Positions 2,821 through 22,623 of a stretch of 64,000 bases of DNA are shown here, in pieces; the first letter of the stretch is position 1; the number at the start of each line of letters is the position of its first letter. The DNA comes from a virus (lineage: Duplodnaviria > Caudoviricetes): the IMG/VR virus record IMGVR_UViG_3300031088_000008, positions 192,001-256,000 of that record, one strand, 5' to 3'. The position numbers and the translations under genes are program-made. The notes beneath the pieces were generated by a model that did not search any database, was not told the DNA's origin, and saw only the letters and a list, made by a program, of their open reading frames with translations.

Positions 2821-2826
2821 AGTTCT

Positions 2827-4856: not shown

Positions 4857-4890
4857 AAGTGCGCCTGCTACCTAGGAGGTAGGAGGAGCG

Positions 4891-5181: not shown

Positions 5182-5183
5182 TC

Positions 5184-5213
5184 GCTTGACACTGGAAACC
5201 CTGGTGCTACAAA
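5184..5213 (+). promoter_or_regulatory. Host sigma70-type early promoter inside the array
   Basis: CTTGACACTGGAAACCCTGGTGCTACA. Confidence 0.65.
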
Positions 5214-5219
5214 GCTGGC

Positions 5220-6854: not shown

Positions 6855-6869
6855 CCCCATAATGGGTTA

Positions 6870-7307: not shown

Positions 7308-7672
7308 TGAAACTCATCGAGAAACATCATCAGTGGTATATTGTTCCCAGCGATGGAGAAATGTTCTTTGCCTGGGAAGCCATTGATGCTGAAGTGCCCA
7401 CGCATATTCGTGCCAATCCCCGCATCTTACCTTTTCTTGCCGAATGGATGGATAACACCTGTCCCGGTCGATGGGGAACGGCATGGATGGATAAAGGCAG
7501 GGCTATCTGGATTGAGGACCCCAGTGTCTTTCAATTGTTCAAGTTAGCCTGGCACGATCACGCCGATATCCAGATAGTAGTGATGCCGGAGATCACGGCC
7601 TTCTACTGCCCCTATATTCCACTGACGATCACGAGTGCAATTCCACAGGTGGGCGATGGCGAGGAGGCTTGA
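7307..7672 (+). CDS. FKLxW-family protein with C-terminal gp23-like peptide
   Basis: FQLFKLAWH followed by AFYCPYIPL. Confidence 0.8.
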   Translation: MKLIEKHHQWYIVPSDGEMFFAWEAIDAEVPTHIRANPRILPFLAEWMDNTCPGRWGTAWMDKGRAIWIEDPSVFQLFKLAWHDHADIQIVVMPEITAFYCPYIPLTITSAIPQVGDGEEA

Positions 7673-7904
7673 CGGCGTTCGGGTCGTGATACCCAAGAGC
7701 CGCGTCTGCATTATAGATGAACACGGCTTCGACGACAGTCTCTCGGACGAGTGCTGGGACTGGATCCAAGAAAACATTGGCGCATGGGGTGTGGACTGGG
7801 AACATGGCGAATGTTGGATGTTCGAAGATTATGGGATGACAAGTTTGGAATTTCACTTTAAGAGAGCTTCCGATGCAATGTTGTTCAAACTCACCTGGGC
7901 CTAG
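7656..7904 (+). CDS. FKLxW-family protein
   Basis: Ends AMLFKLTWA. Confidence 0.85.
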   Translation: MARRLDGVRVVIPKSRVCIIDEHGFDDSLSDECWDWIQENIGAWGVDWEHGECWMFEDYGMTSLEFHFKRASDAMLFKLTWA

Positions 7905-8157
7905 CTATTGGGATTTTCCGCTTCCCAATAAAAAGCTCTATCGGGATCTCAGTTGGCGGGCTGAGGATGATGCCAGTCGTTTATTCGATCAGGAAATGAA
8001 GGACTGGCTAGACCAGCACAACTTCTCCTACAATGGCAGGTTTGTTCATGCCTCCACGGATCTCAGCCAGTATGGCGAACAAGTCTATTCCTGGAGGCTT
8101 ATGATTCGACTCTATGATTCCAAAGCTGCCGTGCTATACAAGCTGACATGGATCTAG
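7873..8157 (+). CDS. FKLxW-family protein (start uncertain)
   Basis: Ends AVLYKLTWI. Confidence 0.75.
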   Translation: MQCCSNSPGPSYWDFPLPNKKLYRDLSWRAEDDASRLFDQEMKDWLDQHNFSYNGRFVHASTDLSQYGEQVYSWRLMIRLYDSKAAVLYKLTWI

Positions 8158-8438
8158 AAGCTACCATTCACACCATTGAGGTGCCAGTCAACGCCGAGTG
8201 CATTGATCGCGCTGGCCGATGGCTCGCAGAGCGTCTGGGTGAGCCCGGATGGAAAAGCAAGCCCCGCACCAACGAACATGGCGATGTGGCCTTTGATGCG
8301 TCTCGTATCTATATGGAAGACGTGCTTTGGGACGCATACGTCAACCCCAGCAGCTTTCGCGCTTTCTTTTTGATCAAAGAAAACGACAACCTTGCCATGT
8401 TGTTCAAGCTGACCTTTGGAGGACAGAATGCTGATTGA
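8148..8438 (+). CDS. FKLxW-family protein
   Basis: Ends AMLFKLTFGGQNAD. Confidence 0.85.
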   Translation: MDLEATIHTIEVPVNAECIDRAGRWLAERLGEPGWKSKPRTNEHGDVAFDASRIYMEDVLWDAYVNPSSFRAFFLIKENDNLAMLFKLTFGGQNAD

Positions 8439-8853
8439 GGAAGTCAAGTGGCGCAAATGGCTGGGACTTCCCTACATCAGTGTTCAGGGGGAATGGCTGG
8501 AAGAGTTCTATCAGCGAAAGCTCAATCAGGGAGATGTCTCGAGCGCACGATGGACTGGTGGCTTCGAGGAATACCGCTGGGCAAAACCCATAAGGGATTG
8601 GCTCCAGGAAAGTGGCGGACGTTACAAGCTAGAAAAGTGTGGGCAAGCCAGCGACTTCGCGGTTGGAAGGCAAGCTAAGATCTGGTTTCGTGATATGAAG
8701 AATGTCACGATGTTCAAGCTGGCTTGGGGTGGGGCAAAGAAGCCTGAGGATCCGCCAGTTGTGTTTGGTGTTACGAGAACTCTCGTCAAGGCCAAGAGTA
8801 GAAAGCTGAAGGGCACTTGGTCCCTTCAGCCTCCTGAAAAATCTACGAAGTAA
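8428..8853 (+). CDS. FKLxW-family protein with C-terminal gp23-like peptide
   Basis: VTMFKLAWGG followed by VTRTLVKAKSRKLKGTWSL. Confidence 0.8.
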   Translation: MLIEEVKWRKWLGLPYISVQGEWLEEFYQRKLNQGDVSSARWTGGFEEYRWAKPIRDWLQESGGRYKLEKCGQASDFAVGRQAKIWFRDMKNVTMFKLAWGGAKKPEDPPVVFGVTRTLVKAKSRKLKGTWSLQPPEKSTK

Positions 8854-9294
8854 TTACTTGACCAGACCAGGAAGGTAACGACCGCCTGCTGGTGGAAGAG
8901 TCAAGACCTGCTGACGGTGACTGATGCCTCCCTTGAGACCAAAGCCAATGTGGACCCAACGGCGCTTTTCGTGGATAAGCTGGTCGAACTTTAGACCACC
9001 CTTGATCAGTGCGGCACAAATCTCATAGGGAGTTCCAAAGTCAGGGCTTACAAAGTCAACACCAAAGCCAAAGCTGTGAGCGGAAGTTACCACGCCACCA
9101 ACGGCACGGTTTACCGCATCACAACGGAAGCCACTGTTGACGCTGATTGGTGTGCCAAGAATTGCACGGACCTTTTCCATCATCTGAGCAGTGTGGGTCA
9201 AGTTTGCCAATTGTGCGGCGTTGGGAACATTCTTGATACCCGTTCCGGTAACGGTCATCTCGGCCAAACTAAAATGCGGTGTAAGCTGGGTCAT
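8854..9294 (-). CDS. Peptidase M15A-family endolysin/peptidoglycan hydrolase
   Basis: LTPHFSLAEM, NSGFRC..VN..VGG...SAH..G..VD, DQLIHE..WVHIG zinc motifs; AAGGAG RBS; TAAATA upstream. Confidence 0.9.
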   Translation of the reverse strand: MTQLTPHFSLAEMTVTGTGIKNVPNAAQLANLTHTAQMMEKVRAILGTPISVNSGFRCDAVNRAVGGVVTSAHSFGFGVDFVSPDFGTPYEICAALIKGGLKFDQLIHEKRRWVHIGFGLKGGISHRQQVLTLPPAGGRYLPGLVK

Positions 9295-9320
9295 GATCGA
9301 TCTCCTTTTGGGGTACAGAA

Positions 9321-9350
9321 TATTTAAGGAGATTTTCCACCCATTAAATA
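9321..9350. promoter_or_regulatory. Back-to-back TAAATA late-promoter boxes
   Basis: TATTTA 9321-9326 and TAAATA 9345-9350. Confidence 0.6.
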
Positions 9351-9354
9351 GGCT

Positions 9355-9585
9355 GTGGATGACCTTTTTGAATATCCCCCGCAAACTAGATCGATCAGGG
9401 TTCAGTTGCCTATGGTCAAGAGTTCCATGCACCACTATGCGGTTCGCACCTGGCTATTGGAGCAGACTTGGCAGGAATATGAAGACTGGATAATTGGTCG
9501 AGAGAGTTTTCACACCGGCATTTATGAGGTGTGGTTTACAGATGTGGGCAAGGCAGTATATTTCAAACTATGTTTCAGTATCTAG
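9355..9585 (+). CDS. FKLxW-family protein (divergent)
   Basis: Ends AVYFKLCFSI. Confidence 0.75.
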   Translation: MDDLFEYPPQTRSIRVQLPMVKSSMHHYAVRTWLLEQTWQEYEDWIIGRESFHTGIYEVWFTDVGKAVYFKLCFSI

Positions 9586-9821
9586 ACCGCAGGCTTGAAT
9601 ACTACTTCAGCCACTACATGGAACTGCCCTACAGCTTTCGCGGTCACTTCTTCCACAACCTATCCCAACGAGACACCGTGGTAGATCAGCTGGAAGAGAT
9701 GCTGCTCTCTTATGGCATCCGTGGGTGGGATTATCTTCTAATAGTACAGCAGGATCGTTTCTGCGTGTATTTTCAAAAACACAGTGCCGCAGTGCGGTTT
9801 TATCTAAATTGGTATCTGTGA
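9570..9821 (+). CDS. FKLxW-family protein (degenerate motif)
   Basis: Ends AVRFYLNWYL. Confidence 0.7.
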   Translation: MFQYLDRRLEYYFSHYMELPYSFRGHFFHNLSQRDTVVDQLEEMLLSYGIRGWDYLLIVQQDRFCVYFQKHSAAVRFYLNWYL

Positions 9822-10097
9822 AGCTTCTTTGGGGCGTCCTGAAGCATTCCAACATAAAAGAAACAACTGGGCAGTGCGGCGCTCTCCGAACTGAAATATC
9901 CGCCCCACATGCTCCATACCCGCGTCGGGACCAAATTCTCCATAGGTAACATAGGGGCGATACCAATTTACCAGCCCCCAATCCCCGCCATGGGCATCCA
10001 GCCACTCCTGTACTTTTTCGGACAGGCAACGTGTTTTGGCGCGCTTGGCTCCAAAGACACCGTTGTTGGCAAAGTGGACTGCTACTTCGTAATTCAC
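9804..10097 (-). CDS. FKLxW-family protein (degenerate motif)
   Basis: GTGA overlap; AQLFLLCWN. Confidence 0.75.
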   Translation of the reverse strand: MNYEVAVHFANNGVFGAKRAKTRCLSEKVQEWLDAHGGDWGLVNWYRPYVTYGEFGPDAGMEHVGRIFQFGERRTAQLFLLCWNASGRPKEASQIPI

Positions 10098-10330
10098 GGG
10101 TTCGCCAAAGAGTCCAGGCCATAAAAGCTCAACTTGAACATGGTCGCCCATGAAGCCTCCCGAAAACAATAGACCCTGAGGTCGCCAACTTCCTGAAAAT
10201 AATCCATGTAATCAACGGCGTTCATGTGAAGCCAGGCATCCGCCCTTGCCTCGAGCGACATGTCATACTCTGGAAGACCAACCTCGTGGGGATAGTCGGC
10301 TTGGATCATGCGAATATAGGCATTGGGCAT
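10094..10330 (-). CDS. FKLxW-family protein
   Basis: ATMFKLSFYG. Confidence 0.8.
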   Translation of the reverse strand: MPNAYIRMIQADYPHEVGLPEYDMSLEARADAWLHMNAVDYMDYFQEVGDLRVYCFREASWATMFKLSFYGLDSLANP

Positions 10331-10614
10331 TAGATGCTCCCACACCAGCGAAGCTTGAACAGCATGGCCGCATTGGCATCCGAAAAGCCAATTATCCGAC
10401 CACGTGCTGGATCACCTTTGGGCAAATTGTTGTTCCACTGTCGCCAGTAGCCCTGCAGGTTTTCCTCGCACCAGTCCCACACTTCATCGCGGATTTCATA
10501 TCCATCGGGAAACTTTGTGGCGCTGTGGTTGGTCCTCAGGTACTCTTTCCATTCAATGTACCGACACACCCGGTCATTGCTGTATGGTACGCTGATTGTG
10601 ACCTCAAATTCCAT
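10330..10614 (-). CDS. FKLxW-family protein
   Basis: AMLFKLRWCGSI. Confidence 0.85.
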   Translation of the reverse strand: MEFEVTISVPYSNDRVCRYIEWKEYLRTNHSATKFPDGYEIRDEVWDWCEENLQGYWRQWNNNLPKGDPARGRIIGFSDANAAMLFKLRWCGSI

Positions 10615-10632
10615 GCCACGTCCTAGCAGTCT

Positions 10633-10917
10633 TTAGCCCCAAGTCAACTTGAACAAGAGTGCCTTGTTGGGATCCTTAAAGTAGAAGTTGGTATCGGTAA
10701 CCAACAATGGAATGTCGTTTCTCCACATTCCAATCTCCCTCATGGTGTTCTTGGGGCCAACGTGTTCTATGAGCCAGTTCAAGACGTCTTCCCTGAGATG
10801 CAGGGATTTGATACGAAAGCCGTTTTCATCCACGATGGACCACACGCATTGGTTGGCAATGTTGGCGCAAAACCATCCGTTCTCGTCTTCGTCATCAAAG
10901 ACGCCAGGATTATTCAC
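10633..10917 (-). CDS. FKLxW-family protein
   Basis: ALLFKLTWG. Confidence 0.85.
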   Translation of the reverse strand: MNNPGVFDDEDENGWFCANIANQCVWSIVDENGFRIKSLHLREDVLNWLIEHVGPKNTMREIGMWRNDIPLLVTDTNFYFKDPNKALLFKLTWG

Positions 10918-11185
10918 TGGCCCACCTCATCTTAAACAGCTGGGCGTCCCGCATCTCGGCAAAGAACCAAATGATGTGCTCGTCAATCGTCCTAAGACCC
11001 ATCTTGCTACCAGAGAGAACATCCTCTTTGGTCAGGATGGCGCCCGTTCGGACCAGCATTAGGTCGTAGTCGCCCTCGATGGTTGCAAGCCAGGCATAGA
11101 TCTCGTCAAGCCATGTCCCACGATGTTCCTGGCTATCTGGATTAGGAACAGGCATCATCACGCAATGGCCGGTAAAAACTGTCAT
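10910..11185 (-). CDS. FKLxW-family protein
   Basis: AQLFKMRWASE. Confidence 0.85.
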   Translation of the reverse strand: MTVFTGHCVMMPVPNPDSQEHRGTWLDEIYAWLATIEGDYDLMLVRTGAILTKEDVLSGSKMGLRTIDEHIIWFFAEMRDAQLFKMRWASE

Positions 11186-11472
11186 AGAAACTTCAACTTG
11201 AAAAGAGCCGCGCGGCCTCGATCACTAATGGACAAGTGCCAGTGATCATAGACATTACACCAGAGTTGATATGTACTCGATCCAATAACCAACAGGGCAT
11301 CATCACTTAAAAAGTACCAGGGAGCCAGGCCGATACTCTTAGGCTTCATAATTTGGGCACTGCTCACACATAGGCGGTCAGTTGGCGGATTGAAATGGTC
11401 GTGACTGTACCAGAGCCACCCATCTTTGTTTATGGTGTCAATGCGATGTGGTAGCATGAAGGTTGTGCTCAT
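11182..11472 (-). CDS. FKLxW-family protein
   Basis: AALFKLKFL. Confidence 0.8.
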   Translation of the reverse strand: MSTTFMLPHRIDTINKDGWLWYSHDHFNPPTDRLCVSSAQIMKPKSIGLAPWYFLSDDALLVIGSSTYQLWCNVYDHWHLSISDRGRAALFKLKFL

Positions 11473-11475
11473 AGC

Positions 11476-11739
11476 TCAGGCATTCTGTATGTGGTGATAC
11501 CATCGAAGCTTGAAAATCATACCATCGCTGTTCTTGTAGAAGAGGATGTGGGTCTCAAACACCTGTGCCTTTTGGTGCTTTCCCTCGGAAGCCTTTTCGT
11601 TGTGCTTCCACTCCAATCCATACTCCGTGATCCCGCTATCGTCGAGCCAATCCTGAACTTCATAGGGGAGACGAGGTGGTGCGAGTTCCTCGTTGCGGTT
11701 TCCCCACACGTGGTAATCTTTGATAATGAACTGAATCAT
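11476..11739 (-). CDS. FKLxW-family protein
   Basis: GMIFKLRWY. Confidence 0.85.
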   Translation of the reverse strand: MIQFIIKDYHVWGNRNEELAPPRLPYEVQDWLDDSGITEYGLEWKHNEKASEGKHQKAQVFETHILFYKNSDGMIFKLRWYHHIQNA

Positions 11740-11960
11740 CGATACCACGCCAGCTTGAACAACATGGCGTCCTTTCGATCTTTGAACAAGATGTCCTGCT
11801 GAAGGTGGTCAGGATCTGCGCTCTTGTGCTGATTGTCACCAAACTTCATCGTAACGCGCAGCTCATGCCCAGCCGCATGTAGCCAAGCCAAAAGAGCCTG
11901 AAACTCCAAGCGGTGAAGCCGGATGGTTACCTTGTTGGGAAAGTCTTTATTTCGCACCAT
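11736..11960 (-). CDS. FKLxW-family protein
   Basis: AMLFKLAWYR. Confidence 0.85.
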   Translation of the reverse strand: MVRNKDFPNKVTIRLHRLEFQALLAWLHAAGHELRVTMKFGDNQHKSADPDHLQQDILFKDRKDAMLFKLAWYR

Positions 11961-12255
11961 GGTCCCACCTCAACTTGAACAACATTAGGTCTCGACGAAA
12001 ACGAAAGTAGATGGGACGCATCCATCGTGGACCTGTGATGTCTATGAGACCAGTACCATCGGGACTTTCAACCCACCATCGACCACGAGGCAATTTGTCC
12101 AGCCACGCCCTAACATCTTCCCTCAGAGGATAGGCATCATAGTCGTCATATTGCTCGTCTTCAATTCGATCAAAGAATTCACTGGACCACTCGGCCACGG
12201 CACGCCATGCTCGCCCCTGGGCAATAAAGGATTTCCAGGAGTGGTGCGTTTCCAT
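11947..12255 (-). CDS. FKLxW-family protein
   Basis: LMLFKLRWDHGAK. Confidence 0.85.
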   Translation of the reverse strand: METHHSWKSFIAQGRAWRAVAEWSSEFFDRIEDEQYDDYDAYPLREDVRAWLDKLPRGRWWVESPDGTGLIDITGPRWMRPIYFRFRRDLMLFKLRWDHGAK

Positions 12256-12275
12256 ACCTGTACCGTAAAGCCAGG

Positions 12276-12494
12276 TTAGGCAAAAGTCAACTTGAACAAC
12301 ACGGCTGCCTGTGGATCGTCGAAGTGAAAGAGAATGGTATCCAGGCCAAAGGAAACGTCCCATCCATTATAGACCCTATTGGGATCCTTGCTCGCAAGGC
12401 AGAGCTCGGGAAAGTGGGCTATCAACCATTCAGCAGATTCCCTGTAGGTGCTCTGCCAATTTCCTCGATCAGAGATTTCCACCGTTACAGCCAT
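12276..12494 (-). CDS. FKLxW-family protein
   Basis: AVLFKLTFA. Confidence 0.85.
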   Translation of the reverse strand: MAVTVEISDRGNWQSTYRESAEWLIAHFPELCLASKDPNRVYNGWDVSFGLDTILFHFDDPQAAVLFKLTFA

Positions 12495-12721
12495 GAGAGT
12501 TTGAACAGCATGGCTGCCTCTCGGTCCTCGGTCTTAAAGCAGAAGTGACGCAGGAATGGAAATGGTGCGATACCCGAGGTGTCCACATTGGAACTCCAAA
12601 TGACATCAAGCGCCCGGTCGTCAAACCATTCGGCTATCTCAATCCAGTGATCATCGCTCTGATCCATTGGCATGCTGACGATTACGGGATGAGTTTGCAT
12701 GACCAGTGACATCAAGGGCAT
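12485..12721 (-). CDS. FKLxW-family protein
   Basis: AMLFKLSWL. Confidence 0.85.
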   Translation of the reverse strand: MPLMSLVMQTHPVIVSMPMDQSDDHWIEIAEWFDDRALDVIWSSNVDTSGIAPFPFLRHFCFKTEDREAAMLFKLSWL

Positions 12722-12954
12722 TATGCCCACCTCAATTTGAACATCATGGCATTTTGGGGCTCACGGAACTCAAACATGATCCCCACAAATTCCACATTGT
12801 TGTGGACGCCTGGCTTGCTCACCACGGTGCTAATAGGTCGTTCCTTGACATGTTCCACGGCCCATTCTACCAGATAGGTCTGAACAGCTTTTACCTTGTT
12901 GATCTCTTCATTGATCTCGCGAAGGCGCGCCAGAGATAGTTCAACTTCCCTCAT
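12721..12954 (-). CDS. FKLxW-family protein
   Basis: AMMFKLRWA. Confidence 0.85.
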   Translation of the reverse strand: MREVELSLARLREINEEINKVKAVQTYLVEWAVEHVKERPISTVVSKPGVHNNVEFVGIMFEFREPQNAMMFKLRWA

Positions 12955-13265
12955 GCCCACCTCAACTTGAATAGGACTGCTCTCGAGGGATCACGGAACA
13001 CAAAGAAGGCGTTATCGGTCCGTGTGGCGATCACCCAGCCCCAGTCCTCATGACCCACGCATTGTTCTCCCGAAGAGACGCAACCCGGTCCATCGTTCTC
13101 GCAGTGGTCAAGATGAAAGACCAATTCCACAATGTTGGTCCACCAACGGCTATCACCCAGGCCAACGTTTGCCCGGAGCCAGTCTAGGACTTCCGGCTTT
13201 AGGGTGATACCCATTTCCCAGTTGACCAGTCGCTCATAGGGCAGCTCAACAGTCGCGCTAGTCAT
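12951..13265 (-). CDS. FKLxW-family protein
   Basis: AVLFKLRWA. Confidence 0.85.
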   Translation of the reverse strand: MTSATVELPYERLVNWEMGITLKPEVLDWLRANVGLGDSRWWTNIVELVFHLDHCENDGPGCVSSGEQCVGHEDWGWVIATRTDNAFFVFRDPSRAVLFKLRWA

Positions 13266-13546
13266 CGACCACCAAATGTAAGTTTGAATAGAACAATGGT
13301 ATCAAGGTCCACTTCGTCACCAAAGTAAAAATGTAGATCCTTGCTTCCAAACTGCGCCAGCCATCCAGGAGTGAAGTCCCAGTTCTTGCCTCTGATATCC
13401 CCACCGTTGCCGTTGCTGGGTCCCAGACGCTCTCCCGCCCACATGACTGCATCGGCAATCTTCTCACCACTGGGATCGTGGAGTGTCACGACAGTAACCT
13501 TTGGGAGGTCTATATCGCTGGGAACCCAAAAGACTTGCTGCTTCAT
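13262..13546 (-). CDS. FKLxW-family protein
   Basis: IVLFKLTFGGR. Confidence 0.85.
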   Translation of the reverse strand: MKQQVFWVPSDIDLPKVTVVTLHDPSGEKIADAVMWAGERLGPSNGNGGDIRGKNWDFTPGWLAQFGSKDLHFYFGDEVDLDTIVLFKLTFGGR

Positions 13547-13842
13547 TGTCCACCCCAGCGAAGCTTGAACAACATGGCGTGTTTGGCATCCGCATCATTG
13601 AAGCAGATCATCCGGTGATTCCAGATGCCACCACTTCCCTCTCGACGCCTCTGGTCGTAATTGTAGCTCTTCACGCACCAATGCCCGGGAGGCAATTCCT
13701 TCAACGTGGATCCGCTGGGAATGTACTGGAGGTTCATCTCCTTGGCCCAGGTCTTTATCGCATCAAGGACCGCCACCCAGGGGTTTGAGGTGTCTTCAGA
13801 CAGGTTGTAGATCTGTTTGTCAGTGAGAGGAAAGGTGATCAT
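13543..13842 (-). CDS. FKLxW-family protein
   Basis: AMLFKLRWGGQ; GGAGG RBS. Confidence 0.85.
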   Translation of the reverse strand: MITFPLTDKQIYNLSEDTSNPWVAVLDAIKTWAKEMNLQYIPSGSTLKELPPGHWCVKSYNYDQRRREGSGGIWNHRMICFNDADAKHAMLFKLRWGGQ

Positions 13843-13862
13843 TAATCCTCCCTATAGAGTAT

Positions 13863-14123
13863 CTAGCCCCAAGTCAATTTGAACAGCATGGCAAAATCAG
13901 GATCGTTCTGAAAGTAAAAGACCCACTCATCACTGGTGCGACCAGAAGTCCAACCCCAGCCAACTCTGTCCTCACTATACAGTCGATCGTGCCCGCTCAG
14001 TCCCTTCTTTTCCACACACCAGGAAAGTGCATCATTCAAACTGGCTGTTGGAACGCGGACAAACGTGCAGGAATTGTACCACTCCATGCTCTTGCTCAGC
14101 GTGTCTCCCCAAAGGTCGCTCAC
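13863..14123 (-). CDS. FKLxW-family protein
   Basis: AMLFKLTWG. Confidence 0.85.
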   Translation of the reverse strand: MSDLWGDTLSKSMEWYNSCTFVRVPTASLNDALSWCVEKKGLSGHDRLYSEDRVGWGWTSGRTSDEWVFYFQNDPDFAMLFKLTWG

Positions 14124-14350
14124 TTTCCACCCCACGTTAGTTTGAACAACATGGCATCCCTGGCAAACTCATCAGGAAATACCACCGACCAGTCCTGCTC
14201 ACTGAGGCTGGCATTGGATCGAAAAGGAATTCCTCGACTATCCATAAAGTCAAGCACTTCGGGGCGAACTTTCCAATACCCACCCCGTCGATTTCTTGCC
14301 TCCAACCACTCGCAGGCTTTTGAAAGATCACAGTGAACACGAATACCCAT
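14120..14350 (-). CDS. FKLxW-family protein
   Basis: AMLFKLTWGGK. Confidence 0.85.
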   Translation of the reverse strand: MGIRVHCDLSKACEWLEARNRRGGYWKVRPEVLDFMDSRGIPFRSNASLSEQDWSVVFPDEFARDAMLFKLTWGGK

Positions 14351-14718
14351 CAGGGAATACTCAGCTTGAACAAGAGCGCATCGCTCTTCAATTCAAAGGC
14401 AATCTCACGGATGCTGCGGAACTTGTCGCGTATCTCATCAGTTACCATATTCAGTTTGCGGGCCAACCGCAACTCTTCCTGGTCATCACGGGTAACGGTT
14501 ATCTGTTCAATGGTGGTGAACCGACGATTGTTCACGTAGTACCAGCGACCCTTGCAGTTTGCCTCCAACCACTCAAATACATGGTCGGCAATGGGGACGC
14601 CATAGGTTGCCGGTCGACCATCAGGTCGCCAGCGATGGACCGGAGAAGTCTCCGAGTTGAAACCCTTACGGGAAAAGTACCGGACGCCATAGAGGGGCAC
14701 GAATGTCCACTCAATCAT
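14350..14718 (-). CDS. FKLxW-family protein
   Basis: ALLFKLSIP. Confidence 0.8.
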   Translation of the reverse strand: MIEWTFVPLYGVRYFSRKGFNSETSPVHRWRPDGRPATYGVPIADHVFEWLEANCKGRWYYVNNRRFTTIEQITVTRDDQEELRLARKLNMVTDEIRDKFRSIREIAFELKSDALLFKLSIP

Positions 14719-14948
14719 ATCCAGGTCAACTTGAACAAAAGTGCCACATCCTTGTCCTCTATGGTCACGATACAGTTCTGTGTGTCAAAGTCAATGTCGT
14801 GGTCCCACTTGTTGGGAGCCAGTCGGGCATCTAGCCAGTCGGCTATCTCGGGGTTGAATATCTGATAACTTCCCCAGGGGCTTTCCGTACAGTGGTGTTC
14901 CCTGTAGGCAACCTTATCACTGAGTATGATGCTGTACTCTACGCCCAT
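14715..14948 (-). CDS. FKLxW-family protein
   Basis: ALLFKLTWI. Confidence 0.85.
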   Translation of the reverse strand: MGVEYSIILSDKVAYREHHCTESPWGSYQIFNPEIADWLDARLAPNKWDHDIDFDTQNCIVTIEDKDVALLFKLTWI

Positions 14949-15193
14949 GTGAGTTTGAACAACATGGCAGCTTTGGGATCCTGGAAGGATATGGCATTGT
15001 TGGTGGGTTGCCCATCAACAAAGGCGTAGACCCATATCCACTCACACTCCCCGGACCAACCACCAGCTTGATTTCCTCGTCCCACAAAGGTGGTCAACCA
15101 CTGAAAAACATCCTGGCGAATCCACCATCCACTACTGTAGGGGTGAGTGTCCCTATATAGGATGCTGCTGGGAATGGGGACCACACTATCCAT
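14939..15193 (-). CDS. FKLxW-family protein
   Basis: AMLFKLTWA. Confidence 0.85.
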   Translation of the reverse strand: MDSVVPIPSSILYRDTHPYSSGWWIRQDVFQWLTTFVGRGNQAGGWSGECEWIWVYAFVDGQPTNNAISFQDPKAAMLFKLTWA

Positions 15194-15549
15194 TAGCCCC
15201 AAGCCAGCTTGAACATCATCACGTCTTTACGACGCCGGAAAAGGATCCCACACTCCTCACCAAACTCACTGGGATGCTCGGTGGTCCAGTCCATGTAGTT
15301 CAAGCTATCGTGGAGCCAGTTACGGATATCTGGACGAAGGTAATCGTAGTTGGGATGAAAATCGTAGTTGTGGTTGTGGTCTTCACTCTCGAGGGTAAAG
15401 AGCTCATTGTCATAGCCAAAAGCCGAGTTGCTCTGCCGACCGCGAACCAGCGAGGGAGCATCCACCTTGGGCTTTCCAATGGCGGTCACGCGATAGCGAT
15501 AGTTCCAGGGCCACCAGGGGATACCAATGTCATGAATCTGTATTTTCAT
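15193..15549 (-). CDS. FKLxW-family protein
   Basis: VMMFKLAWG. Confidence 0.85.
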   Translation of the reverse strand: MKIQIHDIGIPWWPWNYRYRVTAIGKPKVDAPSLVRGRQSNSAFGYDNELFTLESEDHNHNYDFHPNYDYLRPDIRNWLHDSLNYMDWTTEHPSEFGEECGILFRRRKDVMMFKLAWG

Positions 15550-15790
15550 CAGCCCTGCTTTCTACGAGAAGAAAAATCAGTTGGGCGGTCCGGCGGTCCT
15601 GAAATGCCAGGTCGTGACGGTAGGAGGGGTTCATAGCCATCCACCAATCACGTCGCCACTCAAGACCCAGTTCCTCAAACCACAGGTCGATCTCCCAATC
15701 GAGATCGCCATTCATATTGGCCCACGTACTTGGCATGATGCTGCTGGGAATGCTTACCAGCCAGGAAGTTTGAGGACGCCGTCTAGCCAT
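15530..15790 (-). CDS. FKLxW-family protein (degenerate motif)
   Basis: AFQDRRTAQLIFLL. Confidence 0.7.
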   Translation of the reverse strand: MARRRPQTSWLVSIPSSIMPSTWANMNGDLDWEIDLWFEELGLEWRRDWWMAMNPSYRHDLAFQDRRTAQLIFLLVESRADENTDS

Positions 15791-15811
15791 CTTCCTCTCT
15801 ATAGAGCAGAA

Positions 15812-16093
15812 CTATAACCAAGTCAACTTGAACAAGAGGGCATCAGAGGCTTCCCGGAAACCAAAGGAAACTCCAATGACTTCTCGGTGAGGCTCCCAAA
15901 CACTGGAGTTTCTATGAAGCAACTCAATGGTAGCGTGGCTACGGGTAAAAGAAGTAAGCCACTCGCATAGCTCATCAGTTGGAACTATCTGGTATCCCCG
16001 GGGCTTTCCCCACTCCAATCCCCGGGGAAGAGAAGTGTGTCGGCGATTGTAATTTCCAAGTGCTCCTGGGAGCATGATCGAGAGTTCATACAT
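15812..16093 (-). CDS. FKLxW-family protein
   Basis: ALLFKLTWL. Confidence 0.85.
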   Translation of the reverse strand: MYELSIMLPGALGNYNRRHTSLPRGLEWGKPRGYQIVPTDELCEWLTSFTRSHATIELLHRNSSVWEPHREVIGVSFGFREASDALLFKLTWL

Positions 16094-16114
16094 AAGCCCA
16101 CTATAGGAGTGGAC

Positions 16115-16459
16115 TTATCCCCACGTCAATTTAAAGAGCACTGCATCGCTCGGGTTAGGAATGTAAACTCCACACTTCGCAGCATAGGTTGCTAGACCCC
16201 AATCTTCATCAGATTCAGGAACCTTGTATATTGAACATAGTTCATAGGCTATGTTGTTAGCAATGAGCCAATTCTTTTCTCGACAAGTTTCGGTGCTATC
16301 CCACCAGAATAGAAATCCAAACTCTATAGAGCCTGCAGGATCCCCTACAAACATGGGTCTGAACTCAAAACTGTCACCGGTGATGTCAAGTAGCTCACGA
16401 TGACTATGCTTGATCGGAAAAATCTGATTGGGGTTCCACCCCGGATGAGGCCGCTTCAA
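16115..16459 (-). CDS. FKLxW-family protein
   Basis: AVLFKLTWG. Confidence 0.85.
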   Translation of the reverse strand: MKRPHPGWNPNQIFPIKHSHRELLDITGDSFEFRPMFVGDPAGSIEFGFLFWWDSTETCREKNWLIANNIAYELCSIYKVPESDEDWGLATYAAKCGVYIPNPSDAVLFKLTWG

Positions 16460-16935
16460 AACAGCGGCCTCATGGACCAGAGGAAGTCGATGGCATTGGA
16501 GATTGTCGAGACCGCGGTAATCTCATCAGAGTGACCTGCGAAACTCAAGTCCATACGGACCACTTTGTTTTTGGAATAAACTGATGCAGTCGATGCACCA
16601 ATCGCTTGTCGTATGGAGGAAGCCTTTGCGCTGGCAATCTGTGGATCTTCATAGAAGCGGTACAGACACACGCGAATAACACTGTTACTTGGGTCACCCT
16701 GAAAAGCGAGCGTGGGCTGTCCTAGCTGAGAAAGGATGGTCTCCCTACCAAGATCACCAGTGGTCTTGCGACACGCTCGAATCCGGTCGTAACCTTTGGC
16801 TTTATCTTGATCTGCCATTTTGTAGCTCTGACCGTTCAGCGTGATAAAGTCTCCCAAGGTCCCTGAGGAGATTCGCTGAAGCAGCGCAATGCTGGCATAT
16901 TCAGTGCATGAATTGATTAGGATTGATTTTGACAT
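16456..16935 (-). CDS. Hypothetical protein (non-family passenger with own promoter)
   Basis: 159 aa ORF; TTGACA-N17-TCTATA upstream at about 17038-17010. Confidence 0.65.
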   Translation of the reverse strand: MSKSILINSCTEYASIALLQRISSGTLGDFITLNGQSYKMADQDKAKGYDRIRACRKTTGDLGRETILSQLGQPTLAFQGDPSNSVIRVCLYRFYEDPQIASAKASSIRQAIGASTASVYSKNKVVRMDLSFAGHSDEITAVSTISNAIDFLWSMRPLF

Positions 16936-17056
16936 GGTGCGGTTCCCTATAAGAGAGGTTAGAGTTGAGTTAGAGTTTCCAACGCCGCACCATTGCGATC
17001 ATCTACCTCCTATAGAACACCGTTAACTCAGTATGTCAATTACGTTTTCTAATTGA

Positions 17057-17323
17057 CTAGCCCCACGTCAATTTAAAGAGCGTGGCAATCGCAGGGTCCT
17101 TGAAGGCGAAGACTACCTGACCAGGAACGACATCATTGCCATCGTCGTAGTCCTGAATGATATCCCACTCATCGACCTCAACGCGCTGCTGGTCTATCCA
17201 CTCCCAAAAGCCATCGGTTGCCCTATAGCCCTCATTGTAGTCGCTGGCCAGATTCCACCACACGACACCGGGTCCCGATGGATCGTAGTGGTCCTCTTTT
17301 ACTATGATGTGAACGTTGTGCAT
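17057..17323 (-). CDS. FKLxW-family protein (acidic)
   Basis: ATLFKLTWG. Confidence 0.85.
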   Translation of the reverse strand: MHNVHIIVKEDHYDPSGPGVVWWNLASDYNEGYRATDGFWEWIDQQRVEVDEWDIIQDYDDGNDVVPGQVVFAFKDPAIATLFKLTWG

Positions 17324-17562
17324 CAGTGGTTCCAAATCAGCTTGAACAACATGGCAGTTCTCCGATCTTCAAAGGTGAACTCATAGGATTCAACACCAAG
17401 GACGAGGTCCTTGGAGAACCCACCAGTCCACTGACCATAGGGATTCTGCTCGCTCAGGACCCGCCCAACGGTCGCCTCAAGCCAGTCCCAAATACCATTC
17501 CTCTCCCCATGGTATGACTCAAAGGGAATCAGTACACGGTATCTAAACTTTTTACGCCGCAT
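17323..17562 (-). CDS. FKLxW-family protein
   Basis: AMLFKLIWNH. Confidence 0.85.
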   Translation of the reverse strand: MRRKKFRYRVLIPFESYHGERNGIWDWLEATVGRVLSEQNPYGQWTGGFSKDLVLGVESYEFTFEDRRTAMLFKLIWNH

Positions 17563-17845
17563 CAATGACTCCATACCAAGTGAGCTTGAACAACATAGCG
17601 GCACGCTGATCGGGAATATCCACGTGACTGTCGCCGCTGATTAGGTCAATGTCCATTCCATAGAAGACATCTCGATCCTCAAGCCACTGATGCATGGTAT
17701 CCTGCAGAACATAGATGGTGCAGAGGTCATCCCACAATCGAACATAGGGGCGTCCACGATGGATACCACAACCCATGTCCAGTTCATAATAGTGGGGGTC
17801 GGACCTGATCTCAAAGAAGTCCGCGGACACAGCTATCTCACTCAC
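17552..17845 (-). CDS. FKLxW-family protein
   Basis: AMLFKLTWYG. Confidence 0.85.
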   Translation of the reverse strand: MSEIAVSADFFEIRSDPHYYELDMGCGIHRGRPYVRLWDDLCTIYVLQDTMHQWLEDRDVFYGMDIDLISGDSHVDIPDQRAAMLFKLTWYGVIDAA

Positions 17846-18093
17846 TGGAAATCATGCCACGTGAGCTTGAACAACATAGCGATGCCCTTGTCTTTGAAGC
17901 GAAAGCGAACGCTATTCAATCCCTCTACGGGGCGTTGACTTACCCAAGCATCCCAACCCAGGCCCTCACCAATCACTGGGAAACCCTCCTCCACTATAGG
18001 GACACCATTGGCTGCAAACCACCCCTTTAGAGCAGGTGCGAAGAGGCCCTTCTCAAGAGGAACGCTGGCCGCGAAGGTGTCACTATAGGTCAT
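17842..18093 (-). CDS. FKLxW-family protein
   Basis: AMLFKLTWHDFQ. Confidence 0.85.
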   Translation of the reverse strand: MTYSDTFAASVPLEKGLFAPALKGWFAANGVPIVEEGFPVIGEGLGWDAWVSQRPVEGLNSVRFRFKDKGIAMLFKLTWHDFQ

Positions 18094-18116
18094 CTTTTCT
18101 CTCTATAGAGGAAGAG

Positions 18117-18335
18117 TTAGCCCCAAGTCAACTTGTACAGCATGGCCTTCTGGGGGTCGCGAATACTGACTATCAAGCGGTCATCCAGTTCCTCAGGACG
18201 AACGTTTACGCGCCAAAACCACTCACCAGTAGTGTCCAGCTTGGATAGCGATTGAGCGCCCACATGCTCCAGTAGCCAGTTCTGCACCTCGATGTGAAGT
18301 TCCATCCCTATAGGGAAGTTGTGCCACTCTGTCAT
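18117..18335 (-). CDS. FKLxW-family protein
   Basis: AMLYKLTWG. Confidence 0.85.
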   Translation of the reverse strand: MTEWHNFPIGMELHIEVQNWLLEHVGAQSLSKLDTTGEWFWRVNVRPEELDDRLIVSIRDPQKAMLYKLTWG

Positions 18336-18344
18336 GTTTCCGCT

Positions 18345-18566
18345 CTATAGGGGAAAGGTACACCACGTCAAGTGAAACAGCTGAGCAATCCTCCGCTTCT
18401 CAAAGACAAGGGAATCCACCCCTATCCTGTTGAAATCAAAGTCAAACCACCAGTGAACACCCTCGTGAAAACGGTTTCTGATAAACCATTCCTCTATGTC
18501 GGGAAGCAACTCACTACTATAGGTGCCGATTACCATGTAGGCCTGAACAGGGATGCGGACTTCCAT
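18345..18566 (-). CDS. FKLxW-family protein
   Basis: AQLFHLTWC. Confidence 0.8.
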   Translation of the reverse strand: MEVRIPVQAYMVIGTYSSELLPDIEEWFIRNRFHEGVHWWFDFDFNRIGVDSLVFEKRRIAQLFHLTWCTFPL

Positions 18567-18588
18567 GTTTCTCTCTATAGAGGAAGAG

Positions 18589-18846
18589 TTAACCCCAAGT
18601 CAACTTGAACAAAAGAGCAGTGGATTGCTCCTGGAATTCGACCTCTAGGCCCTCCGGATAGAAGCTATAGTGGGCATCAAAGAACGTACTATAGGAGAAA
18701 GAACCACCATGCTCCTGTAACCACCGAGTCATACGTGGCCCCGGACCAAATCCCGTCACATAGCTTCCACTAGAAGGGTTGTGAACGGTCTGATAACACA
18801 GATCCTTACTGTCCTCACGATACTCTATAAAGACACTGGTAGTCAT
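18589..18846 (-). CDS. FKLxW-family protein (first gene of minus arm)
   Basis: ALLFKLTWG. Confidence 0.85.
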   Translation of the reverse strand: MTTSVFIEYREDSKDLCYQTVHNPSSGSYVTGFGPGPRMTRWLQEHGGSFSYSTFFDAHYSFYPEGLEVEFQEQSTALLFKLTWG

Positions 18847-18849
18847 CCG

Positions 18850-20140
18850 CCCTCTATAGAACACCCCTATAGAGAGTTCAACTATTTTGTCCCTAGTGGA
18901 GAGTTGAACTTTCCTCTCTATAGCGTAGACTCTGGTTTCCCACTATAGAGGACACTATAGTGGAACTCTGGTGATAGCTATGGCAAGGCACACTCTGGTG
19001 TACTCTGGGCTAACTCTGGTGACAGATATGCGTGATACGTGAAAGGCACAGTAAAAGGCTATTATGGCATAATAAAGCTGAATTACCGTGCTTTTATGAG
19101 CATTTATTGAACACTATAGGGTCTAAAAAGCCACGCAAATCTGCGACTTTTGAGCAAGTTTTGGCATAGTTAAGTACCATTAAATCAATAATAATTCTTT
19201 CGCCGCACATATAGATTTGACGTGATTTGACACCTTTTTCCACGCTCCTGGGAGCGTCCTCTAGGTGGACTCCTGACGTCCAGGGTCCTCACTAGAGTGG
19301 TCCTATAGTGGATCCATAGTGTCTGAACTCTGTCTATAGTACCTTCTACTATGGCTTCTACTATAGTCTTGGCTATATGAGTCACAGCTATAGTCTACAC
19401 TAGAGTCTATGCTATAGGGAACTTCATGGATTCTCTATAGAGCATTACTATAGGTGTTTCCACTACTGTGATTGGTAATGTGGGGGTGGCTATCTGATGG
19501 TGGATCAAAGATATGAAAAAGCGTACAGTGCCACTTTGAAGTCGCGCTCCGCGCCTAGCATTTTGCGCGGGCATGGTTGGAGGTTTTTCTAAGGTAGTGA
19601 GCATTCTATGAGCAGCTTTTCACTACTATAGAGGCACTATTGGGCACGTTCTCGCGGGCACTTTTGTTCCACTATACGGGAACTCTACTCAACTATAGAC
19701 CAACTCTGCGGGCGATTTGCGGGCGATCAGCCCAAATTTTTGCGCTACTCTGCTCAACTCTAGACCAGCTTTTGGGGCCACTCTCGCGGGCAAATTCCTT
19801 CCACTGCTCGCCCAGCCGTAGGCTTGCTCGCCCAAAATCACGGGCTGTTCGGCGGATTTCACGGGTAGTTTTGGGAAAATCACGGGCTCCTGGGATCAGG
19901 ACCCTCCACAATGGAAGCACCATGTCAACACTATAGCGGCACTATGGGAGAACTATTACTCCACTATAGAGGCACTATAGGTTGCTTGAAAAAACCTTAC
20001 AGGGAATGTCAAAAATTTGATACGCGTGATAAAGGCGATCTGAGGATTATGAAGTTTCTGGGATTCTATACCCTCGGCCCTTCACGTTTTTCAGAATCAT
20101 ATTCTTTCATTAACCCTTTTCATTTACTCAGTTTGGTTTA
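18850..20140. repeat. Non-coding locus with dense CTATAG palindromes, ACTCTGG repeats and AT-rich patches (candidate origin/packaging/leader site)
   Basis: About 18 CTATAG in 18854-19980; five ACTCTGG in 18929-19019; no credible ORF. Confidence 0.7.
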
Positions 20141-20899
20141 TCAAAGTTGGCTAACGGAAACTTGATCAACAAACATTGCTGGACTGTTCGTCTTCTGAGA
20201 GATCAACCTAACGAACATTTGATTGCCGGTAACAAAATTGAAATCATAAGGTTTCCACTCTGTGGTGAGATCTATTGTGGTGTTCACGGCATAGGCCAAG
20301 TTAGTATAGACCAGCAGGTGTAACTGTGTGGGTTGGCTTTCCGCGCGTGCCCACACCCTAACCCTATAGTTGGTACTGCCCGGCAATGCGTTGAAGTACC
20401 CAGTTGTTATGTCCGATGGGTTACCCGATGCTACCGGATCCAGCCTTAGCATCCTAGATCCCTGTAGAGCTAGGGGACTGGCCACTATAGTGGCCGCACC
20501 ATAGTTTACCACCCACACACCATTACCCTCGAATGCATCAGAGAAGACAGCGGTTCCGCTCTGAACAAGTACAGTCTTCACCGTGGAGTTCGTGCTCACT
20601 GTCTCGGTCCCAATGGTTGCTGTTACTCTGCATTGTAGGTTAGTGGCACTGCTAGGCCAATAGGTGTCTTTGTTTGGACTAAACTTGGCCTTGACTCCAT
20701 TGACCAGCCACTCATAGGTTACCGTATCGGGTACTCTATTGGTGGCCCAGTTGACTTTGAACTGCTCACCTATCCTCGTGCCAGTGATAGTTGGTATGGC
20801 AGTAAAGGCAAGTGGTGGGACAACAATCAGCTTGCTTGGTGCCTCGCGGCTGATCAGCTTTCCAATAGGTCGGAACGCTCCTGTGAACTTCATTGCCAT
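20141..20899 (-). CDS. Virion protein, Ig-like plus carbohydrate-binding-like domain
   Basis: TYEWLVNG...LQCRVTAT Ig signature; C-terminal YRVRVWAR...LTTEWK.Y.F.F. Confidence 0.65.
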   Translation of the reverse strand: MAMKFTGAFRPIGKLISREAPSKLIVVPPLAFTAIPTITGTRIGEQFKVNWATNRVPDTVTYEWLVNGVKAKFSPNKDTYWPSSATNLQCRVTATIGTETVSTNSTVKTVLVQSGTAVFSDAFEGNGVWVVNYGAATIVASPLALQGSRMLRLDPVASGNPSDITTGYFNALPGSTNYRVRVWARAESQPTQLHLLVYTNLAYAVNTTIDLTTEWKPYDFNFVTGNQMFVRLISQKTNSPAMFVDQVSVSQL

Positions 20900-20900
20900 C

Positions 20901-21275
20901 TTAGGTTACCTTCTGATACTGTGGGATTATCATGTGTCGTACCTCTTCAGCATAGAGGTCGTGGGTGACGATGTAGAAGCGGATCTCCTCACTCTGTCCA
21001 GCGGTGCTCTGCCTGAGTACGTCTTCCAGAGCTGGTACATAGTGTGCTCCATAGGCTTCTGGGTTCTCCCTGAAGTACTGGAGCGCAGTCCTGATAGCAC
21101 GACTACTGGGTGGGTGGCGATCTGCCCACGCTCGGTGGCCGCGCTGGATTGAGTTGGCATAGGTCAATACTTGACAGCGTTCCAACCTGAGGTGTACCTC
21201 TTTGTCCTGTTCCGCCATGGAAAGTGGTGCATCCTCACCGCTAAAGTTCAGCTCAAGTTGATTGGTGTCGCGCAT
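20901..21275 (-). CDS. Hypothetical protein
   Basis: ORF filling the gap between structural genes; start uncertain. Confidence 0.55.
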   Translation of the reverse strand: MRDTNQLELNFSGEDAPLSMAEQDKEVHLRLERCQVLTYANSIQRGHRAWADRHPPSSRAIRTALQYFRENPEAYGAHYVPALEDVLRQSTAGQSEEIRFYIVTHDLYAEEVRHMIIPQYQKVT

Positions 21276-21288
21276 GATTGGTAGCCTC

Positions 21289-22623
21289 TTATCTAAGGTA
21301 GGAGTTGCGTGTTGCCATAATATCATTCCAGCTTTGGTAGCCAGAGGGCACCCCGTATTTGAAGGGCTCTGCCCCTGCGTTAATGGACCACTCTCCCCTG
21401 ACAGTAACGTTGGGCTCAGTGATACAAAAGTAGTTTTCCAAGTTCATATTGCCGTATGGATCCCAGTCCAATCCCAGTGACGCGGGATCGCTGGCAACTG
21501 GTGTGCCCATCCAACCCTGCTCATCTCTGAGGTACCATTTGCTCTGAAAGTATTGAGGAGTATTCATTGCAAAGCCCCAAGTCTTCGTCCCACCAACGGG
21601 AGTTGCTCGTGCTCCACCTCTATTCAAAGACGCTGCATTGACTGTCAATGCTAGGCTGGTTGCCAGGATGCCGCTTTCCTGTGTGTCGCCGGCACCTCCC
21701 AACACGAAGGCATTCGTCCTTCTATAGTGTCTGGTACCAAATCGAGAACTAGCGGCACCAACTTTGTGGGCGGTTACCTCGAAATACATCTTGCTCATGT
21801 TGGGGATTGGAACGTTACTGTATGCGCTGGCAATGAACGATGTGGAAACTGTGCTATTGGTAAGTGAAACTCTAGTATCATTTACCTGCACTCCACCATA
21901 ACCGGCCATCAAGCGCACCTTGTGGTCGCGATAGCCAAGGAAATTGTAGTTGGCTGGAAGATAGGGTGTTGACAGTTGTCCTGCGTTCAGAGTAATATTC
22001 AAGCCTGTTGCTGCTAGAACTTGCACCATGGGAGTAATGGATCCAGCGATACCAGTGCTACTTGCCATGGAATAGCTGAGTGTTCCCATGTCCTGCGTGG
22101 TAACTGGTGAGCCTAAGGTAGCCCAAACACCATTGACATGAAAGGTCGTCTTGATAGTGTTGGTTCCAGCACCTGAGGCATCAACCACCATGCCCACAAT
22201 ATCACCGTTCTTTAGTTCTGGAAAATACTTTCCCAATACAGTGGTGCTACTGCCGGAAAAGACTGTACCATCCGTTCTAAGCCACACACCATTGAGTGTG
22301 TTAGCGGTAATCGCGCTTGTACTGCCCACTCCCCAAGCGTTGGTCCAACCCAGTCTGCTAAGTGCTCTGATGTCATTGATGCGCCACTCAACGTATCGTC
22401 GATCGTTGTAGATGTTGGTGTTGATTACCGCATGGGAAAGAGTGGTAACCTTCTTTTGAATCGTGAGACCATTGTCAAAAAAGTCATAGACATTTGACGC
22501 GGTATCATAGGTCGCACCTTGGAAACTTGGGTACATTCCATCAAATACTTGGGAAACCAGAGGAGGAGTGGTCACCTTAATAAATGGGATAGGCTTGAAG
22601 GCGCCAGTAAATTTCAAAGACAT
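21289..22623 (-). CDS. Virion protein with SPRY/ConA-like domains
   Basis: YVEW, GDIVGMVVD, YFEVT, NAGAEPFKYGVPSGY motifs; AAAGGAG RBS. Confidence 0.7.
   Translation of the reverse strand: MSLKFTGAFKPIPFIKVTTPPLVSQVFDGMYPSFQGATYDTASNVYDFFDNGLTIQKKVTTLSHAVINTNIYNDRRYVEWRINDIRALSRLGWTNAWGVGSTSAITANTLNGVWLRTDGTVFSGSSTTVLGKYFPELKNGDIVGMVVDASGAGTNTIKTTFHVNGVWATLGSPVTTQDMGTLSYSMASSTGIAGSITPMVQVLAATGLNITLNAGQLSTPYLPANYNFLGYRDHKVRLMAGYGGVQVNDTRVSLTNSTVSTSFIASAYSNVPIPNMSKMYFEVTAHKVGAASSRFGTRHYRRTNAFVLGGAGDTQESGILATSLALTVNAASLNRGGARATPVGGTKTWGFAMNTPQYFQSKWYLRDEQGWMGTPVASDPASLGLDWDPYGNMNLENYFCITEPNVTVRGEWSINAGAEPFKYGVPSGYQSWNDIMATRNSYLR

Follow-up and report, generated by a model that had tools for sequence, protein, structure and literature searches.

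The DNA analysed here is a stretch of 64,000 nucleotides (nt), below called the window, which corresponds to bases 192001-256000 of one 416,714-bp virus record, that of a giant leaf-surface phage (~90% complete by the CheckV estimate). It carries arrays of small genes of a single family, of which the record encodes at least 76 diverged paralogues, proteins of ~90 amino acids (aa) ending in A-(M/L)-L-F-K-L-T-W-G. The codons of this ending, called the motif, recur as short direct repeats at the gene ends, and our subject is the part that these repeats may play in the gain, loss and replacement of single genes.

Two divergent arrays of the family lie in the window:

2533-9585, plus strand: array A+, 16 family genes, divergent from array A-
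10094-18864, minus strand: array A-, 28 scanned family genes back to back (~30 small genes), many of them translationally coupled with overlapping stop and start

A third array of 11 members is found ~212-216 kb downstream, and the remaining members are scattered. The members were collected by a motif scan for open reading frames (ORFs) of at least 60 codons that end in [FY][KH][LM]x[WF] within 12 residues of the stop. The resulting 76 is a minimum, as two or more degenerate members are present in addition, at 14350-14718 and 15530-15790.

A module between two 21-nt repeats

Within array A-, the family genes m53 and m54 share a stretch of their motif that is identical at 21 of 21 positions, and the DNA between the two copies forms a module:

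16119-16139, minus strand: right 21-nt direct repeat, 3' motif codons of m53 (16115-16459)
17061-17081, minus strand: left 21-nt direct repeat, 3' motif codons of m54 (17057-17335)
16119-17060, minus strand: 942-nt module with a promoter-like spacer (16936-17056), a non-family gene of 159 aa (16456-16935), the m53 body and one repeat copy

As the original prediction had it, the repeat pair brackets a gene foreign to the family together with a promoter-like spacer. This 159-aa gene is single-copy in the genome. The special codons noted for the pair were also found again: TTT-AAA at Phe-Lys occurs only in m53 and m54 among the 76 members, and TTT encodes the Phe in 5 of the 74 members that have Phe at this place.

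Relatives of the window come from one metagenome scan, which yielded four related loci (L001-L004). L002 comprises 20,264 nt of a 463,849-bp contig and is ~92% identical to the window, L001 comprises 3,022 nt and is ~94% identical, and L003 and L004 have 54% protein identity to the query. The latter two have diverged and been rearranged too far to act as outgroups for telling insertions from deletions. The phage collection, which may omit the window's nearest records, gave no match for 9800-19000 (megablast) or for m54 (tblastn). Among the IMG/VR viral contigs, an m36 query gave four pattern hits, none of which was confirmed as a relative.

In addition, the contigs of four runs from four studies (X2, X4, X7 and X11) were aligned onto 2500-22400. 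The runs holding window DNA are labelled as phyllosphere, plant and straw metagenomes, and all 11 runs consist of assembled contigs, not raw reads. Logan contigs are built from 31-mers, and a 21-nt repeat should therefore not give a false join. Uncovered stretches of a run were counted as evidence only if bridged by a contig, and joints whose sides measured only 21-32 nt were discounted as probable motif cross-matches (3556>4096, 3556>5464, 5502>14130, 5785>14979, 7309>5754 and 10687>11745).

The module is precisely missing from two of these runs. In X11 (record 4), 15187-16118 continues straight into 17061-17965 with no gap letters, while 9 and 26 other letters lie within the two pieces. In X4 (record 16), which belongs to a different study, the joint is 16116>17059 (side 255). 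A joint of 16116/16118 to 17059/17061 is the exact empty-site form expected from recombination of one 21-mer with the other. Hardly any of the bin 16444-17107 is covered in any of the four runs, in agreement with a strain-specific module.

L002 carries a different form of the locus. In place of the spacer, the 159-aa gene and the m53 body (17060-16141) it has a 73-aa family gene, X1. To the right, the window and L002 agree at every position once the first motif codons of m53/X1 are reached, the downstream spacer included. On the left side, the body of m54 is 89% identical to its L002 orthologue, whereas the motif agrees at only 18 of 27 positions; the m54 of the window carries a motif of the m53/X1 type. 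The m54 motif is thus non-orthologous and identical to that of m53/X1, and each of the two breaks falls within an ORF, where a motif begins at its 5' edge. Together with the form in X7, at least four alleles (window, L002, empty, X7) exist at 15.8-17.1 kb. The recombination reading has good support for the 16119/17061 pair.

The motif as protein ending and as DNA

The motif is part of a protein domain and is therefore conserved. According to the alignment, the domain of ~70-110 aa comprises an N-terminal Pro, a (D/E)-V-x-x-W-L-x-E helix, a middle Trp, an F-x-F-x-D strand and the closing A-(M/L)-L-F-K-L-T-W-G helix. Bodies of family members have 14-37% amino-acid identity to m54. The gene bodies between the repeats had been taken as unrelated, but they are diverged paralogues, which share the Pro, the (D/E)-V-x-x-W-L helix, the middle Trp and F-x-F-x-D. 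The degenerate members, both on the minus strand, lack the terminal Trp: 15530-15790 ends in ...AQLIFLLV..., a form that is kept in L002, and 14350-14718 ends in ...ALLFKLSIP.

A profile search retrieved 2229 representative proteins at E<=0.001, mostly of 70-110 aa; in some of them two domains are fused, and the motif lies within the protein. Two proteins of other phages, P0012 and P0015, hold two family domains with an internal LFKLTFG motif; such fusions presumably arose by loss of a stop codon or by in-frame joining of neighbour genes. The profile also matches giant proteins of 1349-4073 aa (P0010, P0011, P0013 and others) in 5-14 stretches, mostly at profile positions ~10-60, the region of the W-L helix. 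These matches could be a repeat domain or chance.

Searches of Pfam, PHROG and PADLOC returned only weak sub-threshold rows and no family for the members, for the 159-aa non-family gene or for the ORF of an insert in L001 described below, and no toxin or immunity signal was found in them. The AlphaFold model of m54 (37-row alignment, mean pLDDT 70.9) has the order beta-beta-alpha-beta-beta-alpha, and a Foldseek search of the model against the PDB gave no match at E<=0.001. In a wide VIA-align comparison the best Z was 4.2, to alpha/beta sandwiches of the ACT, RRM and KH type; this is not distinctive, and no fold was assigned. The ESM Atlas contained viral hypothetical clusters only, with scores of 0.89-0.90. 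A narrow literature search on families of small tandem jumbo-phage paralogues found no description of this one, from which absence from print is not claimed.

How far the identities at the DNA level exceed expectation was judged by shuffling codons within columns (200 shuffles) and counting in-register exact runs over 2850 member pairs. Runs of at least 21 nt were observed in 6 pairs against 1.56 +/- 1.41 expected, and runs of at least 17 nt in 46 pairs against 19.2. Two of 59 adjacent pairs had a run of at least 21 nt, with 0.05 expected, and none of the 200 shuffles reached two. Chance does not fully account for the identities.

The identical runs had also been seen as a trait of neighbours, to which they are not peculiar: 4 of the 6 runs of at least 21 nt join members 17-69 ranks apart. 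The longest identical run, 25 nt, connects members 140 kb apart, and others connect members on opposite strands. Nor are adjacent motifs more alike at synonymous codons, as had been expected: identity was 130/272 (0.478) for adjacent and 5385/11735 (0.459) for unlinked motifs (permutation p=0.19), and 111/260 at distance 2.

Codon choice at the motif is skewed. The Phe codon is TTC in 69 of 74 cases, compared with 62% in long ORFs and 43% in family bodies, and Leu is encoded by TTG in 22/48 and 26/72 cases, compared with a background of 14-18%. This skew exceeds the protein need and leaves room for selection at the DNA level or for homogenisation by conversion.

The other repeats listed in the original prediction are real as well. 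The pairs 12723/12953 and 10345/13555 each show a single mismatch over ~20-24 nt, the blocks 18096-18139 and 18568-18611 match at 42 of 44 positions, and a second pair of 21-mers is identical at 21/21:

17580-17600, minus strand: 21-nt run in the m56 motif, identical to the m57 run; no indel seen between the two
17861-17881, minus strand: 21-nt run in the m57 motif, partner of 17580-17600

In L002, the orthologues of m56 and m57 share a run of only 14 nt, and the recombination reading is equivocal for this pair.

The 44-bp block extends beyond the motif and has a counterpart at the head of the array:

18096-18139, minus strand: composite element after m58, consisting of motif codons with TTGACT, stop, spacer, CTCTATAGAG and the next start
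18568-18611, minus strand: second composite element, after m60, a copy of the 18096-18139 element
18855-18881, minus strand: promoter-like element at the array head, just upstream of m60, with TTGAAC, 17 nt and TATAGA

The pattern TTGA(C/A)N, 16-18 nt, TATAG(A/G) recurs at the head of the array and at four junctions within it, and L003 has four copies; in the version with TTGAC(T/G) it is also present in L004. Junctions of the TTGAC...TATAGA kind are those at 15826, 16129, 18131, 18371, 18603 and 18881. A recent duplication as the origin of the 44-bp block was rejected, as the L003 copies are 85-88% identical to those of the window while the L003 endolysin region reaches only 68.6%. The block looks like a functional promoter-like element, and its conservation appears to be mainly functional. 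Nevertheless, it is a deletion endpoint in X2 and X11: X2 joins 18115 to 18876 and X11 joins 18587 to 18876, at the same offset in both 44-bp copies. Position 18876 is the common right-hand joint of three variants, and in X7 18620-18875 is replaced by 291 nt.

A generic sigma-70 scan, which requires T at position 6 of the -10 box, listed only 16129-16100 among such elements and found 7 sites against 9.4 expected in shuffles. A scan for terminator-like sites found 14 against 7.7 expected, of which only 16151-16136 overlaps a motif. The junction elements are putative promoters.

Gene content and break positions in related strains

The array gene content of the window differs from that of L002 at three places, all at 15.1-17.1 kb. 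In all three the homology break lies in a motif or at its edge, and in two it lies upstream of the stop, inside the ORF. Including the other relatives, the following further junctions are affected:

15812-15844, minus strand: motif interval of m52; L002 has an extra 83-aa family gene (208 nt) after m52, and X7 has 760 nt in place of 15836-17083
15187-15225, minus strand: motif of m51, stop and next start; L002 has an extra 93-aa family gene (249 nt), and X11 and X7 have 268 extra nt at 15187/15193
14939-14971, minus strand: motif interval of m50; X4 has 241 other nt instead of the m50 body (14970-15186)
10626-10634, minus strand: spacer after the m35 stop; L001 has a 518-nt insert with a non-family ORF; the right edge of the insert lies in the spacer and not in a motif

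The m52 motif of the window matches the motif of the extra L002 gene and not that of the L002 m52 orthologue, which shows three synonymous differences from the window in the Leu-Trp codons plus the stop codon. Within m51, X4 and X7 have 47 nt where the window has an internal segment of 92 nt (15354-15447), and the m51 of L002 is also shorter; the variable loop of this member differs in length between strains. The L001 insert contains a non-family ORF of ~150 aa directly after the m35 orthologue (L001:1529-2044), which has no homologue in the genome of the window. This would make it a second insert of the moron type in the array.

Mapping of indel breakpoints in relatives had been proposed as a check of the crossover idea. 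Of 30 compiled break positions, 18 lie at most 7 nt from a motif interval, compared with a share of 13% of the array for the motif intervals +/-5 nt. The remaining 12 comprise 10 edges of diverged or internal blocks in gene bodies (m19, m22, a 5135/5499 block over the m24-m25 junction, m41 and m51), one at the array-head element (18876) and one end of a contig piece (18407).

Divergence between the window and L002 also changes gene by gene, with body identities from 0.62 (m19) to 0.995 (m17 and m29). The mean step in identity is 0.090 across junctions (n=40) and 0.039 within genes (n=43; Mann-Whitney p=0.009), and in fine-scale identity tracks the divergent block of m19 ends at its own motif. 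The larger steps at junctions, together with some edges within bodies, therefore indicate that crossovers are favoured at junctions but not confined to them. In L003 and L004, a core block of m39-m35 and the endolysin neighbourhood are kept, and the other members are reshuffled gene by gene.

An M15 endolysin gene lies near the end of array A+ (8854-9435, minus strand), and several long ORFs adjoin the array. The hexamer CTATAG has 52 copies in the 416.7-kb genome, of which 36 fall in 13-23 kb of the window and 29 in 18-23 kb. It is densest at 18860-19980. Most copies lie in an ORF-poor stretch upstream of array A-, often as CTATAGT, and by its sequence this cluster looks like iterons or a group of promoters or operators. 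GTATAC is absent genome-wide, ACTAGT has 8 and CTTAAG 14 copies, and other palindromes of similar composition have 22-135; this scarcity suggests restriction-site avoidance. Further upstream, a gene of 444 aa (21289-22623, minus strand) has the N-terminus M-x-x-K-F-T-G-A-F, which resembles that of a 252-aa ORF at 20141-20899. An aligned piece of X7 ends at 21275. The 444-aa gene may be a swappable cassette of related neighbour genes.

Probable recombination on protein-maintained repeats and its alternatives

We regard ordinary short-homology recombination, acting on repeats that are maintained by the protein, as the best and a probable reading of these data. Selection on the protein would keep the last ~9 codons alike across a large tandem family of paralogues, and the conserved endings would scatter co-oriented near-repeats of 20-30 nt through the arrays. 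Some junctions have a longer repeat (~45 nt), because the motif codons run there into a conserved promoter-like spacer. General short-homology recombination would then act on the repeats, both within a genome and between co-infecting strains, by phage machinery of the RecA/UvsX type or by replication slippage. The outcome would be deletions, insertions and replacements in motif-to-motif units of one gene body and one motif; single events may have gone in either direction, and a circular intermediate could be involved. The 21-nt repeat at 16119/17061 would be the scar of such an event, flanking a two-gene module which is missing exactly in other strains.

The search for enzymes is consistent with this mechanism. 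Tyrosine recombinases (PF00589) had no match at E<=0.001 in the whole record, whereas 14 of 14 control genomes matched, and serine recombinases (PF00239) had no match in the record either. A RecA-family gene, RecA/UvsX-like, is present at 9613-10374 of the record (52 bits, above the Pfam cut-off). This combination, together with the variable motif DNA and the differing offsets of the joints, fits general short-homology recombination. The idea of the motif as a crossover site for cassettes stands at the 16119/17061 locus, with its 942-nt loss in X4 and X11, and at the L002 breaks; it does not extend to a general rule, in view of the p=0.19 given above.

Several observations weigh against this reading. 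There is no general link between adjacency and synonymous identity. Whole-gene indels necessarily end near gene ends, which is where the motif lies, and coordinates alone mostly cannot separate the motif from the gene boundary. For example, the m51 joint in L002 falls within the TGGGG/stop/ATG overlap, at the 3' edge of the motif, and is indistinguishable from the boundary. Only one edge of the L001 insert adjoins a motif, and some mosaic edges are located inside bodies, such as those in m22, m27/m28 and m51. Gene-specific selection could add to the divergence steps at the junctions. Gene-sized indels are also seen where there is no motif repeat: L002 lacks the 444-aa gene, a control from outside the array, and the edges of this gap are cleanly intergenic and show no long repeat. 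Finally, run data made of contigs cannot show circles or heterogeneity within a sample.

Part of these points would suit an explanation by chance and shared descent, in which illegitimate recombination strikes anywhere, selection keeps the whole-gene events, and breaks fall at gene ends while the motif has no mechanistic role. The missing adjacency link, the 4 of 6 long runs between distant members and the absence of the 17580/17861 identity from L002 agree with it, and neither the indel outside the array nor the L001 insert needs a motif repeat. It does not readily explain a 942-nt loss exactly between perfect 21-nt repeats or the replacement of the m54 motif inside the ORF, and long runs, adjacent ones too, exceed the codon-shuffle expectation. 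We consider this explanation unlikely. Short-tract gene conversion between neighbour motifs, a form of concerted evolution independent of cassette gain and loss, seems less likely still. The m56/m57 motifs, identical over 21 nt in the window and over 14 nt in L002, could have been made alike in this way, and the skew towards TTC and TTG goes beyond the protein need. However, at ~92-95% strain identity two point changes explain m56/m57 equally well, the skew could reflect a DNA-level function such as the promoter-like TTGAC, and an overall neighbour excess in synonymous identity is not seen.

A dedicated site-specific cassette system like that of integrons, whose recombinase recognises the motif DNA and moves one-gene circles in and out, is disfavoured and in our opinion very improbable. 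The co-oriented repeats at every gene end and the one precise empty site would be expected of it, and the commonest codon choice, CAAGT-TG-ACTTG, forms a weak 5-bp inverted repeat. Yet no tyrosine or serine recombinase was found in the 416.7-kb record (~90% complete), the motif DNA is variable, the joints have differing offsets, and the motif is the last helix of a domain in 2229 representatives, being internal in the fused forms.

Recombination on protein-maintained repeats can be compared with several known systems. Integrons consist of IntI, attI and attC, and their single-gene cassettes have a repeat at each 3' end. Similarly, the arrays hold co-oriented single-gene units with a 3' repeat, which are gained and lost singly. 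Unlike in integrons, the search gave no integrase, the repeat is variable and lies in coding sequence, the position of the joint is not fixed, and the cassettes are mostly homologous. An attC site is defined by non-coding imperfect inverted repeats and a fixed joint; as judged without folding, the repeats here are coding and the joints differ. CRISPR arrays have near-identical, non-coding repeats of constant length, set apart by unrelated spacers that are also of constant length. The repeats here are again coding, with ~46% synonymous identity, and the "spacers" are homologous genes of 200-350 nt; cas genes were not searched for. The likeness to an integron or CRISPR array put forward originally is not upheld, given the lack of a detected recombinase, this low identity and joints that fall at the 5' edge of the motif, at its 3' edge or in the spacer.

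In polymorphic toxin/Rhs/CDI systems, Zhang et al. reportedly described in 2012 orphan cassettes in which a coding motif beside variable sequence provides homology for swapping by general recombination. Here, too, a conserved coding motif beside variable sequence would serve swapping. In contrast, the motif precedes a variable C-terminal toxin there and one large gene is altered, whereas here it closes each small gene and the exchange involves entire genes. In tandem gene families, direct repeats undergo unequal crossing-over and deletion, which change the copy number in register and leave a hybrid repeat at the joint; this applies to the arrays as well. The difference is that the homology amounts to only ~20-45 nt, because the bodies have diverged to about 15-30% amino-acid identity.

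By analogy, the closest described system is the shuffling of promoter-early stem-loop (PeSL) repeats. The modular shuffling by PeSL in T4-type phages is said to have been treated by Comeau et al. in 2014. PeSL repeats flank strain-specific ORFans of T4-type phages, occupied alleles occur next to empty alleles with a single repeat, such as ORF192 in RB49 versus phi1, and the shuffling is explained without a site-specific recombinase (Arbiol et al. 2010, PMC2839356). In both systems short repeats are dispersed among the small accessory genes of hyperplastic regions. In both, genes that differ between close strains are flanked by repeats and have an empty allele with one repeat, here the 942-nt module (X4 and X11) and the L002 extras at m52 and m51. 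Some of the repeats have what looks like a sigma-70-like -35 and a -10-like box, which may parallel the promoter of PeSL. Unlike the PeSL described there, the repeat is mostly protein-coding, being the last codons of the upstream gene, and the genes being shuffled largely belong to one family of paralogues.

As a tentative extension, the last codons may have a triple role: as the closing helix of the protein, as the -35 of the next promoter through Lys-Leu-Thr at some junctions, and as the exchange joint for co-infecting giant phages. The skewed codons might then keep the joint recombinogenic, and the motif might be an in-frame coding counterpart of PeSL. This seems to us possible, though doubtful.

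Giant phages have many small genes of unknown function, and the turnover of such gene sets is poorly documented. In the natural strains compared here, genes are gained, lost and replaced one by one, with joints in a protein-coding motif. The locus at 15.8-17.1 kb, with its four or more alleles, is a concrete test bed. If the reading is true, selection that acts on the end of a protein can itself give rise to hot spots of recombination, which would be a simple route to rapid diversification of accessory genes without a dedicated recombinase. The PeSL idea would then extend beyond T4-type phages to another phage group and to coding repeats.

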